NCBI GenBank assembly: GCA_026395435.1
Contig: JAPLYT010000003.1
Span: 4,024-68,023 of the forward strand
Direction of reading: 5' to 3'
DNA: 64,000 bases
Source: Candidatus Saccharimonadota bacterium
Lineage (GTDB): Bacteria > Patescibacteriota > Saccharimonadia > Saccharimonadales > AWTP1-31
The notes beneath the pieces are model-generated. The model ran no database searches, was not told the origin of the DNA, and worked only from the letters and a program-made list of their open reading frames with translations. The position numbers and the translations under genes are program-made. Below are positions 10,319 through 60,858 of this stretch, piece after piece (the stretch's first letter is position 1; each line of letters starts with the position of its first letter).

Positions 10319-11185
10319 ATGAAGTTCACTATCCAAGAGTTTAATCAAAAGTTTCCTACTAGTGACTCCTGCTTGGATTACCTCTGGAAAATGCACTTCG
10401 CAGATAAGCCCTGTATTACCTGTGGGATGTATGACGGCTTTCATAAACTTCCACACCGCCCTGCCTACCAATGCCAATGCGGTAGTCAGCTTTACCCGTT
10501 AGCTGGCACACCATTCCACAAGTCCACGACCGATCTACGTACGTGGTTTCTTGCTATCTTCTTTATGACCAACACTCGCTCAGGTATGTCAGCCCTCCAG
10601 TTCCAGCGCATTAGTGGCGTAACCTACAAAACTGCTTGGCGTATTTTCAAGCAAGTCCGTCTGATGATGGCTGACGACAATAGCCAGCTCAATACTCATG
10701 TTGAAGTAGACGAAGCCTACATGCACCCCAATCCTCAAAAGCGTAGTACCGCTAAGCCACATAACAGCCAAGTTTTATTTGGCATGGTGGAACGAGGTGG
10801 CCGAGCTAGGATTAAGCACGTCAAAAGCTCAGGTACTCGTGTATTAGTTCCTGAAATCCAAAAGAATATTGAGCAGACTGCCACGATCTATAGCGATGAA
10901 CATGGCTCATATCGTTTGCTTAAGAAACGTGGTTATCTGCATCAAACCGTTAACCACGGCAAGCAACAATATGTTATTGGCTGGGTACACACCCAAAACG
11001 TTGAAAACTTCTGGAGCCAATTTAAGCGTGGTATCTATGGCGTTTACCGCCACTGTGATCCAAACTACTTACAGCACTATGCCAACGAGTATGCTTTCCG
11101 ATATTCCAACCGCAAAAACGATACGCCTATGTTTGAGCTAATATTAGGCAAACTCCTTAGCTCACCAACCCCTCTAAACAAGTAG
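10319..11185 (+). CDS. IS1595-family transposase (N-terminal zinc ribbon plus DDE domain)
   Basis: N-terminal Cys pairs (CITCG..CQCG). DDE_Tnp_IS1595-like blocks VEVDEAYM, IYSDEHGSY, NVENFWSQFKRGIYGVYRH, YANEYAFRYSNRKN. I could not define terminal inverted repeats. Confidence 0.85.
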   Translation: MKFTIQEFNQKFPTSDSCLDYLWKMHFADKPCITCGMYDGFHKLPHRPAYQCQCGSQLYPLAGTPFHKSTTDLRTWFLAIFFMTNTRSGMSALQFQRISGVTYKTAWRIFKQVRLMMADDNSQLNTHVEVDEAYMHPNPQKRSTAKPHNSQVLFGMVERGGRARIKHVKSSGTRVLVPEIQKNIEQTATIYSDEHGSYRLLKKRGYLHQTVNHGKQQYVIGWVHTQNVENFWSQFKRGIYGVYRHCDPNYLQHYANEYAFRYSNRKNDTPMFELILGKLLSSPTPLNK

Positions 11186-48640: not shown

Positions 48641-48674
48641 ATACAACAAAAACGAGGCCCCCTGCTGGGACCCC
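48641..48674 (-). terminator. terminator-like hairpin plus U-run about 50 nt upstream of the CNNM gene start
   Basis: Minus strand GGGGTCCC-AGCA-GGGGGCCTC (about 8 pairs including G-U pairs, one bulge) followed by GTTTTTGTTG. No annotated minus-strand gene lies upstream of it. Confidence 0.35.
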
Positions 48675-48748: not shown

Positions 48749-48939
48749 ATCACTATGCCCGAACGTTTCACGCTTGAGTTAATTTCGGTGCGAAGCTGAG
48801 GAGTGAAGCGAGCCGTGCATATAGTACGGTGCTGCGAACCCCGGAGGCTTCAAACTGAAAGTAGCCAAGAGGCAATGCATAAATACGGCTTTGCCGAATT
48901 TTAGTATTGCCGGCGTGAACTGCGAGGCACTAATAGTGG
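48749..48939. repeat. copy A (more degenerate) of a hairpin-rich element with terminal inverted repeats
   Basis: Alignable with 59256-59422 through shared strings TTGAG, TTTCG.TGCGA, CTGAG, GAGCCGT, AGTACGG, CGGAGG, TCAAA, GGCTTTGCC, TAATAG. Hairpins at 48812-48830 and 48886-48896. Confidence 0.6.
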
Positions 48940-49245
48940 AGGAACTGTTGCCAACTAGCCTTTTTAATTTTAACTTCCACGTTAATACTCCTCGAATGTA
49001 TTGATTTAACTTTAATTCCCATTTCCTCTTCCCTCACTTTTAGGGCCACAAAGAACGTCTCAAATTCTTCTTGGCTTTATTTTTAATTATTTTTGTTTTT
49101 CCATTGGTACTATTTGTACGCAAAGAATGTAATGATTCTACATAAGCATTATCGGATTGTCAAATCTAATTTTTACAGGCCTCGCATTCAAGACCAACAT
49201 GGTATACTAAGCGTAAGTATTACTAATATTAGGGGCACCAAAAAA

Positions 49246-49485
49246 ATGGCAAAAAAATCCACTGCAAAAAAACCAGTCAAAAAGACCGTTAAAACAGTTT
49301 CTAACAGCGGTTCAGCATCATTGCTTTCTGCAACAGCAATCTTATTCGCGGGCACATCAGTCGTTCTTATTGGCATGATACAAGACGCTGATCACATAAC
49401 GCTCCTTATGGTCGGATTTGGCGCTGCCCTTCTAGTCATCGGCGGTGCACTCCTCGGATCTGCCGCAAGAACTACTAAAAAATAA
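49246..49485 (+). CDS. small two-TM membrane protein with Lys-rich N-terminus (79 aa)
   Basis: Start trimmed to MAKKSTAKKPVKK. Two hydrophobic helices. Confidence 0.5.
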   Translation: MAKKSTAKKPVKKTVKTVSNSGSASLLSATAILFAGTSVVLIGMIQDADHITLLMVGFGAALLVIGGALLGSAARTTKK

Positions 49486-58690: not shown

Positions 58691-59197
58691 CTATTCAAAC
58701 CTGAGGAGATCAACATTTTTTGCGACTTCATCAGACTTGAAGATGCCGCCATTCATACTTAGATACACTCCTGGCTCAATCGACTGAAAAGATGCAATAG
58801 CAAAACCTAAGTTAAAACCGGCGTCAGAAGCTGCAAACCCCATAATCGGAACCATTGAGCCCGTAAGAATAATCTTTTTACCCGAAATGTTTTTAGCGTC
58901 TAGATATTGTGCAGTCTGCGCCATTGTAAAAGTACCATGGGGGATAAGAATATTTTCATGAGGAGACTGCTCTATAGCTTTAATCAACTTGTCTCGATCA
59001 TCGTCTGTAATATCTCTACTGTCCTTTGCAGCGATCGGCTCAGAGCTAAAATTAAAATGCGGTTGGATCAAATTATGTAAATAACTATCAATAGTCGAAT
59101 CGAGTTTTAGTAGTTTCTTATTAAAGGCATCGTATGAGGGGTCTATAAACTCAATCGTACCACCCATCTTGATAATGTGAACGTGTGTTTTAGTCAT
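58691..59197 (-). CDS. asparaginase-family protein, single N-terminal-type domain (168 aa)
   Basis: IIKMGGTIEF, IPHGTFTMAQTA and IILTGSMVPI correspond to asparaginase/glutaminase N-domain motifs. Start trimmed to MTKTHV (TATCAT 6 nt upstream). Confidence 0.55.
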   Translation of the reverse strand: MTKTHVHIIKMGGTIEFIDPSYDAFNKKLLKLDSTIDSYLHNLIQPHFNFSSEPIAAKDSRDITDDDRDKLIKAIEQSPHENILIPHGTFTMAQTAQYLDAKNISGKKIILTGSMVPIMGFAASDAGFNLGFAIASFQSIEPGVYLSMNGGIFKSDEVAKNVDLLRFE

Positions 59198-59255
59198 GAC
59201 TACATGATACCAAAAAATGTAACAATATCTTTGAAGACAGCTATACATTAGGAAC

Positions 59256-59422
59256 ATCACCTATTAGGGTTGAGGTAGTTTCGATGCGATTCTGAGCAAC
59301 GGACTGAGCCGTACAGAAAGTACGGCGAAGGAGTAGCGGAGGAATCAAATCGGAAATACCCAACAGTACTGCAAAGTGGCGGGCTTTGCCCGACGCTCAA
59401 GCAGTACGGCCTAATAGGTGAT
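59256..59422. repeat. copy B (best preserved) of the hairpin-rich element; perfect 13-bp terminal inverted repeats
   Basis: ATCACCTATTAGG (59256-59268) pairs with CCTAATAGGTGAT (59410-59422). Internal hairpins GCCGTAC-AGAAA-GTACGGC (59308-59326) and CGGGC-TTT-GCCCG (59380-59392). Confidence 0.65.
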
Positions 59423-59433
59423 AGAATAGGGAT

Positions 59434-60858
59434 ATGAAAAACAACGCATCAATGGCCTACGCCATTCTGCTCATAATTGGCGATTTCCTCGCCCTCATCG
59501 CCGCTTTCACTGTCGCCTACATCTTACGCGTCAAAATAGACGCCCGTCCGCTTGTAGAGCAAATCAAGGCTCGAGAATATATCATCGCCTTTGCCTACGT
59601 CTTACCGCTTTGGATTTTAGTACATAGTTTCATTGGCCTATACTCTCAGCGAGTATACGAAAAACGATTTACTGAACTTGGCCGGCTCTTAGTAGGTTCG
59701 GTATTGGGTATTCTGGTTGTTATTGGCTTTAACTTCGTCACCAATGGCAAGCTCTTCCCCGCACGACTTGTCCCTGTATACGGACTTGGACTTGGTTTTA
59801 GCTTCTTGGTACTATTCCGGACTATTGCTCGTCTTGCCAGACGATCGCTCTATGCTTACGGCATTGGTGTCAGCAATGTCCTAATCGTTGGAAATACTAA
59901 GAGTTCAAGCATGATCGCCGAGGCAATCTGTAATACAAAAAATACTGGTCAACAAGTACTCGGCATTGTAAGTTCAGAATCAACAGATTTCACGCAATAT
60001 TCAAATTTTAAAACCGCAATAGAAAAGATTAGCCAACCCATTCACAGTATTATTCAAACGGAACTATATAAAGACCAAGACCGAAATGACGAAGTTCTAA
60101 GCTTCGCCCAGAAACATCATGCCGCATACCGTTTCGTTCCCGGCAATACGAGCCTTTTTGTTGGTAATATCGAAGTTGAACTTTTTGCCGGTCAAATCCC
60201 GATGATTGCAGTCCATCAAACAGCACTCGTTGGGTGGGGTCGTATCGCAAAACGGCTATTCGATATTTTCGTATCACTCGTCGCACTTCTGGTCGCGTCT
60301 CCACTTTTCTTGATTATTGCATTGTTAGAAATAATTATTGGCGGAGGATTTCCAATTTTCTTCCGACAAGTTCGACTGACACGATTCAATAACACTTTTA
60401 CGGTGTTTAAATTCCGGACTCACCGCAATGGCTTAAGTGGCCTCAGCGACAAACAAGCGTTTGAAAAATTAGGCAAGCCAGATTTATATAAACAATACAA
60501 AGAAAACGGCTATGCGCTCGATAACGACCCACGGTTAACTCGTCTTGGTTCTTTCCTCCGAAAGACATCCCTCGACGAACTACCCCAGCTGATAAACGTT
60601 CTAAGGGGTGATATCAGTCTGGTTGGACCTCGCCCTTTAATCCCCGAAGAGATTAATACCTACGACAAAAAACATATGATCCTCAGTGTAAAATCTGGCC
60701 TTACCGGTCTAGCTCAAGTTTCAGGACGTCAAAATATCAGCTTCGAAGAACGACGCAAACTGGACATGTATTACGTCCAAAATTGGACTTTCTGGGGCGA
60801 CATCGTCATCCTCGTCAAGACTGCCAAAGAAGTCTTCCTGGGCAGCGGAGCCCTCTAG
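59434..60858 (+). CDS. polyprenyl-phosphate glycosyl-1-phosphate transferase (Bac_transf/WbaP-like priming sugar transferase)
   Basis: N-terminal TM bundle, then [25 protein letters not shown] and [21 protein letters not shown]. Confidence 0.85.

Follow-up and report, generated by a model that had tools for sequence, protein, structure and literature searches.

The 167-nucleotide (nt) element at positions 59256–59422 of a 64,000-nt stretch of Candidatus Saccharimonadota DNA (contig JAPLYT010000003.1; the whole stretch is hereafter the window) is a member of an ancient, dispersed and strand-specific family of structured elements that has not been described previously. This element, termed copy B, lies on the plus strand just 5′ of a gene for a priming sugar transferase. 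The family has so far been seen only in Saccharibacteria (TM7, Patescibacteria). Judging from sequence comparisons, we hold with moderate confidence that it is best explained as a cis-acting RNA module in the envelope polysaccharide cluster, one that spreads and is lost as a unit.

Structure of the element and of a second copy in the window

Copy B forms a complete three-way junction by both minimum-free-energy (MFE) folding and covariance-model alignment, and its plus-strand fold has a predicted stability of −86.1 kcal/mol (z = −10.4 relative to dinucleotide shuffles). An earlier note on this DNA, made from the letters alone, had described perfect 13-bp inverted termini. These are indeed found at 59256–59268 (ATCACCTATTAGG, the left terminus) and 59410–59422 (CCTAATAGGTGAT), where as perfect 13-nt complements they close the element as helix P1. 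The 5′ strand of P1 includes the anti-Shine-Dalgarno-like sequence AUCACCU, and its 3′ strand carries the Shine-Dalgarno-like AGGTGAT and the TG of the motif TGaTAGAAT. Helix P2 (59269–59364) is a bulged rod of 96 nt with GA-rich internal loops, evident in the fold and in the family consensus, and ends in the apical hairpin GCCGUAC-AGAAA-GUACGGC, the loop of which occupies 59315–59319. Helix P3 (59366–59407) is a 3′ hairpin with the outer stem GUACUGC/GCAGUAC and the tip CGGGC-UUU-GCCCG, and both of these helices covary.

The transferase gene (Bac_transf; Pfam PF02397, E = 7e-59) spans 59434–60858 on the plus strand, and the closest homologues of its product are named Candidatus Saccharibacteria or Saccharimonadales. 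The element had been recognized correctly as standing just before the ATG of this gene (59434), from which 11 nt separate it. Likewise, a TAGAAT box that had been seen to overlap the right terminus is located at 59422–59427 and is directly preceded by TG-A, such that the extended −10-like motif TGaTAGAAT covers 59419–59427. Comparison of flanking sequences points to another extended −10-like motif, TGTAACAAT, as a putative promoter at 59218–59226 on the plus strand, 29 nt 5′ of the element. A two-hexamer promoter scan called no plus-strand promoter at copy B, and did not call TGTAACAAT.

The second copy in the window, copy A, is intergenic and also on the plus strand. The earlier note had identified this copy at 48749–48939, an extent that the covariance model corrects to 48760–48924 (165 nt). 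Its architecture is that of copy B, with a fold of −74.9 kcal/mol (z = −5.7). Two internal hairpins differ between the copies by covarying changes exactly as had been described: hairpin 1 is GCCGTAC-AGAAA-GTACGGC in copy B and GCCGTGC-ATATA-GTACGGT in copy A, and hairpin 2 is CGGGC-TTT-GCCCG in copy B and CGGC-TTT-GCCG in copy A. That account of the covarying helices was incomplete, however, as compensatory differences are also present in P1, which is UUCACGC/GCGUGAA in copy A, and in the outer stem of P3 (GTACTGC/GCAGTAC in copy B versus GCAATGC/GTATTGC in copy A). Both helices had been missed by RNAalifold because MAFFT misplaces the 3′ third when copies A and B are aligned, an error that model-based alignment corrected. 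Two conserved patterns of 20 and 27 nt match the window at copies A and B only, with 0.07 and 0.00 matches expected by chance. The folds and these unique long patterns together indicate a similarity far beyond chance.

Members of the family

Covariance model R1 was built from copy B and its orthologues in two relatives, and model R2 was rebuilt from 18 sequences. About 1 Mb of Saccharibacteria DNA was searched overall, of which 744 kb comprised metagenomic loci harvested around transferase homologues; individual loci are referred to here by L numbers. R1 scores copy B at 202.9 bits and copy A at 93.9 bits, and it also matches two diverged copies in related contigs and 12 more in the 744 kb. 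R2 (175.9 bits for copy B, 133.1 bits for copy A) confirms the earlier copies, adds a few truncated ones and reveals six more in additional contigs. The reverse strand of copy B scores only about 10 bits with R2, compared with 176 bits for the plus strand. A search of the window with filters off returns copies A and B only, and a near-identical strain has a third copy (L092:1880-2046) shortly beyond the window's right end. Copies in the family are 165–173 nt long. What had been taken for a two-copy family thus has about 25 more members in related DNA, as judged by the covariance model.

In keeping with the initial impression that the element belongs to no known RNA family, searches of Rfam 15 with four members at E values up to 10 gave only noise of 11–22 bits to unrelated families, and no match to any Rfam family, including group II intron, 6S, T-box, ydaO, glmS, EAR, wcaG and lysM-TM7. 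A BLAST search of copy B against plasmid and phage collections gave no match. Literature searches on riboswitches and structured RNAs of Saccharibacteria turned up a single motif, lysM-TM7 (Weinberg et al. 2017), and it differs from the element. Scanning genome contigs for the pattern TGCGANNCTGAGN{30,55}CGGAGGNNTCAAA retrieved one Rokubacteria and one Acidobacteria locus, neither of which fits the covariance model; this pattern is judged too strict because a relative with 92% identity already has CAAG in place of CTGAG.

The apical hairpin by itself was matched by 109 stretches of viral DNA. When 48 of the viral loci were searched with the model, only a 23-nt hairpin fit (15–16 bits). This hairpin, RAGCCGTAY-N5-RTACGGNGA, resides near position 640 in L095, L099, L101 and about 40 other viral loci, most of which belong to one group of ∼29.5-kb phage genomes in which its position is conserved. 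Since nothing but the hairpin matches, we consider it unrelated to the element.

Covariation and the folding strand

The fold shared by the family is a tightly stacked three-way junction composed of a closing helix P1 of about 13 bp, a P2 rod of about 97 nt and a P3 hairpin of about 45 nt. A test of the covariation that had been suspected from the two window copies bears it out. In an alignment of 18 copies, 93.7% of pair cells hold standard pairs, versus 33–43% when the 3′ partner is slid by one to three columns, and 57 of 63 base pairs show compensatory changes on both sides, figures that are inflated by the fitting of this alignment to the model. None of 500 column shuffles reaches any of the observed pairing measures. 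Moreover, independent MFE folds of four members (copies A and B and two copies embedded in open reading frames, ORFs) give the same structure. All 13 pairs of P1 have changed by compensatory substitution across the 18 copies, leaving no terminal consensus and therefore no conserved terminal sequence for recognition by a transposase. Both helices of P3 (helices 7 and 8) covary as well.

Paralogues are only 35–58% identical. Beyond the architecture itself, conservation extends to both strands at the base of P2 (5′ UUGAG, 3′ CAA-nAG), to three GA-rich internal loops of upper P2, to an apical GUAC/GUAC stem that is nearly invariant and to a GGCUCUGCC-like tip of P3, and about 25 loop and junction nucleotides are conserved across the family. 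Among the copies preceding the transferase gene in L051, L041 and L065, identity is 61–77%; the corresponding transferases are only 66–67% identical in amino acid sequence.

The strand on which the fold is maintained can be read from imperfect pairs. On the plus strand of the 18-copy alignment, G-U pairs outnumber A-C mismatches by 69 to 18. The ratio is 7:0 in copy A and 23:5 in copies antisense to their neighbors, and this excess indicates that the plus strand is the folding strand everywhere. Of the two characterizations offered at the outset, a structured RNA is strongly supported by covariation and strand bias; a MITE, or miniature transposable element with terminal inverted repeats, is not supported in the form proposed, given that P1 covaries and target-site duplications are lacking at the sites inspected (see below). 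The fold and its loop nucleotides are held by nucleotide-level selection in every context.

Genomic contexts and orientation

The 3′ end of the element lies 0–11 nt from the transferase ATG in five lineages. In these transferase-leader copies, the 3′ strand of P1 contains the purine-rich, Shine-Dalgarno-like sequence AAGGAAG, GAGGAG, AAAGG or AGGTGAT. A conserved TGCTACAAT is found about 30 nt 5′ of the element in L051, L041 and L065, and its equivalent at copy B is TGTAACAAT. These shared upstream motifs suggest that the element constitutes the 5′ untranslated region of the transferase gene. In L038 and L020, a copy is instead placed between the transferase stop codon and the GT4 start, and an in-frame ATG within the element reads into GT4.

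Other copies are arranged differently. Six occupy the plus strand in gaps flanked on both sides by minus-strand genes, and a seventh overlaps the 3′ end of a Wzy_C ORF encoded on the minus strand; the antisense and gene-end copies are those in L002, L069, L001:9047, L018, L043, L204:4555 and L206:18. Riboswitch-like placement in five transferase-leader lineages and two GT4-leader copies must therefore be set against six ORF-embedded and seven antisense or gene-end-overlapping copies. The element's 3′ end tends to meet the edge of a gene, at the start codon if that gene is on the plus strand and at the stop codon if it is on the minus strand. Promoter and terminator scans of the flanks detected no conserved promoter or intrinsic terminator, and no alternative terminator or anti-terminator structure was found. 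A leader peptide was considered and rejected: stop-free frames across the elements are common, as expected from a consensus that lacks stop codons in two frames, but they are out of frame with the downstream gene.

All confident copies share the strand that encodes the transferase. This strand has a negative GC skew in 49 of 57 loci, and in the window it carries 17 genes versus 41 on the other strand. GC skew is negative across the entire window (1–64000), whose minus strand encodes 41 of the 58 long ORFs.

The transferase–GT4 junction, where L038 and L020 have an element copy, has the look of an insertion hotspot. In L205:1413-2767 and L206:3290-4644 it is taken up by two toxin-antitoxin pairs (PhdYeFM/PIN and PemK), and in L207:4844-5206 by a gene of the 23S_rRNA_IVP family. 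At L002:7362-7399, about 2.5 units of a tandem repeat (GATAGTCTCCAGTC) separate the start codon of a LexA-like gene from the 5′ end of the element.

Copies within protein-coding genes

The GT4 glycosyltransferase gene of L051 carries a copy, and six homologues are without one. At least 15 GT4 homologues with 54–64% identity to the L051 protein have an insertion at exactly the same site, recognizable by the peptide ...AQGASE[DN]RKGxVxxxTxTAxRSxQ... (an example of an insert-derived peptide is ...RKGGVQESTLTADR...). The closest relative, P0242 (384 amino acids), has no insert. The covariance model matches within all four homologue genes that were fetched, at 93–108 bits, and the analyses that follow use these four genes and that of L051. 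The five copies share one frame offset and contain no stop codons. Standard pairs fill 89.4% of their pair cells, versus 25–41% when the partner strand is slid, and 29 of 63 pairs show compensatory changes, compared with a maximum of 22 in 500 shuffles.

The pattern of substitution differs sharply between the insert and its surroundings. In the rest of the GT4 gene, differences at codon positions 1, 2 and 3 are 0.35, 0.26 and 0.64, with an amino acid identity of 0.58. Within the element, the corresponding values are 0.28, 0.34 and 0.33, with an identity of 0.51. This flat profile, compared with the coding signature outside, indicates that the nucleic acid fold rather than the peptide is constrained, even as the reading frame is still kept. 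An AlphaFold2 model depicts the insert (residues 122–172) as a disordered excursion with a predicted local distance difference test score (pLDDT) below 50, and most of the flanking GT-B blocks score 75–97. In L202, an extra 27 nt (10362–10388; nine codons, KPERPSKPS region) precede the GT4-embedded copy with preservation of the frame. The residues WLSRLL, which in other genes correspond to the region of the P1 5′ strand, are thus upstream of a new perfect 13-bp P1 in this locus.

The glmS gene of L039 likewise harbors an element in frame and without stops, which lengthens the protein by about 50 residues immediately ahead of GIGHTRWATHG. The insert is missing from seven other GlmS proteins of Saccharibacteria, and by this comparison the insertion is derived and unique to one lineage. 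A protein search with the insert and its flanks returned the conserved GlmS part only, and is little informative because the query protein is itself not in the database. The reading frame in which the element is entered differs between the glmS and GT4 copies, but at its apical hairpin the two use one frame. Frame-0 peptides from 10 copies are only 10–29% identical, too dissimilar for a useful profile query.

Gain and loss of copies

Occupancy varies even among close relatives. In the 97%-identical relatives L007 and L008, only 66 nt separate the LytR and transferase genes and the element is not present. These loci nonetheless keep GGCCTAATAGGTGATAGAATGGGTATATG (including GGCCTAATAGGTGATAGAAT), which comprises the 3′ strand of P1 and all sequence downstream. 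We read this arrangement as a probable secondary deletion that retained the gene's own expression signals. Persistence of the P1 3′ strand where the element is missing indicates that this strand doubles as transferase expression signals. No element is present at the transferase leader in relatives with 72% and 68% identity. The spacer between the LexA and GtrA genes is filled in L002 and L069 and is empty in the window and in L001.

Inspection of about 15 sites, the check on mobility that the earlier note had suggested, uncovered no target-site duplication, direct repeat or common target sequence, and no transposase gene adjoins any copy in the gene tables examined. The intuition that this is a mobile element is nevertheless partly right, given the presence or absence of copies between near-identical strains and their gain inside genes. 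The whole element is gained and lost as a block and is tolerated in any context.

Two observations concern copies at the transferase leader. In L009, a 92% relative, a truncated look-alike of the 5′ part of the element (2697–2735; CACCTATTGGcctcTTGAtaATTTCGGTGtGC) stands just 5′ of the intact element, and could be what is left of an earlier copy or of a tandem one. When positions 59290–59340 of copy B are compared with L001:2823-2873, about nine differences are found, all clustered in upper P2, and the other ∼125 nt are identical. These differences convert three base pairs via double changes, and the two transferases are 96% identical. Such clustering suggests either that another copy donated this stretch by gene conversion or that it is a specificity region evolving fast.

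Surroundings of copies A and B

A 168-amino-acid gene for an asparaginase N-terminal domain (58691–59197, minus strand) directly adjoins the 5′ side of copy B. The window shares this gene with the near-identical strains L091 and L092, but it is missing from the 92–97% relatives L001, L009, L046 and L007, in which LytR is followed directly by the element or the transferase. This gene looks like a strain-specific insertion beside the element. Neither a tRNA gene nor an Rfam family at gathering score is found anywhere in the 64-kb window.

On one side of copy A, 165 nt away, a divergent CNNM/CBS gene starts; on the other side, some 320 nt 3′ of the copy, is a small membrane-protein gene (ATG at 49246), which itself precedes a Na_H_Exchanger/TrkA_N gene. 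A weak plus-strand promoter-like site is located about 55 nt 5′ of the copy. Two minus-strand signals bracket it: a strong promoter-like site at 49135–49163 (TTGACA-17-TAGAAT, 11 of 12 matches) and, at 48654–48674, a hairpin followed by a T-run that resembles an intrinsic terminator. With these signals, transcription of the minus strand could yield an RNA of about 480 nt that crosses copy A in antisense and ends just short of the CNNM/CBS gene. The small membrane-protein gene (49246–49485, plus strand) encodes 79 amino acids, with a lysine-rich N-terminus followed by two hydrophobic segments, and is conserved, being found also in L002. The longest-ORF call, which begins at a TTG at 49093, over-extends this gene.

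Comparison with known elements

By analogy only, the closest counterparts in behavior are the Rickettsia palindromic elements (RPEs), reportedly described by Ogata et al. in 2000. RPEs are strongly structured repeats of ∼105–150 bp in the reduced genome of an obligately host-dependent bacterium, which reside between genes or in frame within unrelated genes, where the added peptide is compatible with the protein fold (PMC10969869, PMC3184786). The Saccharibacteria element is similarly in frame in glmS and GT4, without stops and with the downstream protein conserved, and neither element is associated with a recognized transposase, terminal inverted repeats or target-site duplication. However, its hosts belong to another phylum. 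RPEs are simple long hairpins and are described as encoding a conserved peptide, whereas the Saccharibacteria element is a branched three-way junction that is constrained at the nucleotide level and is read in different frames in glmS and GT4. It also displays deep covariation in vertically inherited copies.

Bacterial MITE-like repeats such as Correia/nemis, ERIC, BOX, RUP and Neisseria REP2 are shorter than 200 bp, form stable RNA stem-loops and are co-transcribed with their neighbors; promoter, ribosome-binding-site or start-codon signals may be present in such repeats, which can also become fused with the ends of ORFs (PMC3184786). The element resembles them in its small size, multiple dispersed copies and sites that are filled or empty between relatives. 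In contrast, its termini are not conserved, P1 covaries, its copies have diverged widely, to 35–58% identity, and no related insertion sequence is known. Lacking conserved termini and target-site duplications, the element does not conform to the definition of a MITE.

Two other comparisons are instructive. EAR (of Bacillus eps operons) and wcaG are both represented in Rfam. Like these RNAs and translational riboswitches, the element is a structured RNA in or before exopolysaccharide clusters, with the ribosome-binding region in a helix. Unlike them, it is multi-copy, occurs within ORFs and antisense to genes, has an extremely stable P1 and matches no Rfam entry. Homing introns and inteins share with the GT4 copies a fixed site across divergent hosts, sporadic absence from close relatives and conservation of their own structure, but the element is tiny, keeps the frame free of stops, has no endonuclease or reverse transcriptase and is mostly found outside genes. 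This family of structured elements is new, was found in Saccharibacteria and gives unusually clear evidence for selection on a fold within coding sequence.

Possible mechanism and alternative explanations

If the element is a cis-acting RNA module, the plus-strand fold of each copy would most plausibly form in RNA, as part of a host transcript. Its effect might then be on translation or on the fate of the mRNA, probably through display of P2 and P3 to a putative trans-acting factor, for which the conserved loops of these helices would provide the binding surface. In transferase-leader copies, including copy B, the P1 3′ strand appears to be the gene's own ribosome-binding region (and possibly its −10 region), and formation of P1 would be expected to occlude that region and attenuate translation of the transferase. 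Copies in frame within genes would be translated as a disordered loop.

Several observations weigh against this explanation. The seven antisense or gene-end copies would need promoters of their own to be present as RNA, and no conserved promoter was found. All copies are on the C-rich strand, which is the minority gene strand, and this bias might reflect a DNA-level, replication-linked process. A perfect 13-bp P1 seems too stable for a ligand-operated switch. TGaTAGAAT (59419–59427) could initiate a leaderless transferase transcript that excludes copy B. Moreover, the loci were harvested around a single cluster, such that enrichment there is weakly supported, and within the window no copy is present in the first 48.7 kb and two are present in the last 15.3 kb.

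A broader proposal is that the element represents a hitherto unrecognized class of functional RNA fold in the Candidate Phyla Radiation, selected wherever it lands, including within translated ORFs, whose synonymous sites the fold would constrain, as either a shared cis-module or a new kind of small mobile RNA element. We regard this as a tentative possibility only. On such a view it is conceivable, with no greater assurance, that one trans-acting factor or ligand ties together envelope-polysaccharide genes (the priming transferase, GT4, glmS and others), or that the fold is needed for the element's own spread.

The most durable of the competing explanations, though an unlikely one in our estimation, is that of a purely selfish, non-autonomous palindromic DNA repeat, akin to MITEs or RPEs, which is spread by a putative transposase or by recombination and whose fold is a by-product of no gain to the host. 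Differences in occupancy between 97%-identical strains and at several other sites fit this view, as do the derived glmS insertion in one lineage, the junction shared with toxin-antitoxin genes, and the in-frame and end-fused copies, which have parallels in RPEs and other small repeats (PMC10969869, PMC3184786). Against this view, vertically inherited copies at a fixed site retain the fold through compensatory change over deep divergence, synonymous sites in the GT4 insert are about twice as conserved as those in its flanks, and G-U pairs exceed A-C mismatches on one strand only. Furthermore, the P1 termini are not conserved in sequence, target-site duplications and a shared target sequence are not observed, and paralogues at 35–58% identity are unlike young MITE families.

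The uniform orientation of the copies raises the prospect of an element that acts as single-stranded DNA, with a hairpin used in replication-coupled transposition (IS200/IS605-derived or REP-like) or in a replication function. All ∼25 copies share one orientation relative to the transferase, including the seven that are antisense or overlap gene ends. The strand concerned has negative GC skew in 49 of 57 loci and is the minority gene strand in the window (17 versus 41), and hairpin-recognized elements also lack target-site duplications and conserved termini. Yet if the G-rich strand is leading, the plus strand is the leading-strand template and is not exposed at the fork, and each G-T pair of the plus strand would be an A-C mismatch in the strand that is exposed. 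The gene tables show neither a Y1 transposase nor a RAYT gene beside any copy, and a branched 170-nt fold with conserved internal-loop nucleotides is more elaborate than known DNA hairpin signals. We consider this explanation improbable.

We give a somewhat lower rating to a riboswitch class that senses a metabolite or second messenger (for example, a nucleotide-sugar or cyclic dinucleotide) to control envelope polysaccharide genes. Its attractions are the position directly 5′ of the priming transferase, which recurs across lineages, the Shine-Dalgarno-like P1 3′ strand, the covariation-supported helices with ∼25 conserved loop and junction nucleotides, and the associated genes, namely the transferase, GT4, glmS and, for copy A, a location between the CNNM/CBS gene and a K+/H+ exchanger operon. 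Against these stand a P1 of 12–13 perfect bp, which is unusually stable for a switching helix, the lack of an alternative terminator or anti-terminator structure, copies that are within ORFs or antisense to neighbors, close relatives that do without the element, and searches to E values of 10 that match no known riboswitch family.

Nearly the same low standing applies to a small homing intron or another intervening sequence excised from RNA. The GT4 site is occupied across divergent species and sporadically empty in close relatives, as homing would produce, P1 joins both boundaries, and structure is conserved within ORFs where constraint on the peptide is lacking. Excision, however, would require neither the frame nor the freedom from stops that is kept by all six ORF-embedded copies examined, nor the frame preserved by the 27-nt block in L202. 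Most copies are outside genes, and neither group I nor group II intron families match. The length of 170 nt is far below that of any known self-splicing intron. The apical hairpin, AGCCGUA...UACGGU, resembles the base of group II intron domain V. Domain V is a 34-nt hairpin with an AGC triad and a 2-nt bulge, and group II introns also have domains I and VI; the apical hairpin has only 7 bp and a 5-nt loop with no bulge, and Intron_gpII gives no match.

Finally, a multi-copy family of genes for trans-acting small RNAs, each with its own promoter, is highly improbable: copy A and the antisense copies are in no obvious 5′ untranslated region, a weak plus-strand promoter-like site precedes copy A by ∼55 nt and sequence is conserved on one strand only, but no conserved promoter or intrinsic terminator is found at the flanks, many copies abut start codons or sit in ORFs, and paralogues share structure with little sequence, which is unusual for small RNAs that act by base pairing.

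Implications

Recognition of the element has immediate use in annotation, as gene callers translate it as parts of proteins or as N- or C-terminal extensions, and calls improve when it is recognized. The GT4 copies offer a rare natural case in which constraint at the RNA or DNA level can be seen to outweigh the normal pattern of coding sequence, with third codon positions conserved to the same degree as first and second ones. This is directly testable, as some Saccharibacteria can now be cultivated and transformed.

Saccharibacteria and other Patescibacteria are ultrasmall and host-dependent, with streamlined genomes, and to our knowledge almost no regulatory RNAs are known for them. The envelope polysaccharide cluster, in which the fold occurs several times, builds the surface used for attachment to host bacteria. 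The element, which persists through compensatory change even within ORFs, would represent either an uncharacterized layer of gene control in these organisms or a new type of selfish structured element in a genome that can spare little space for junk.

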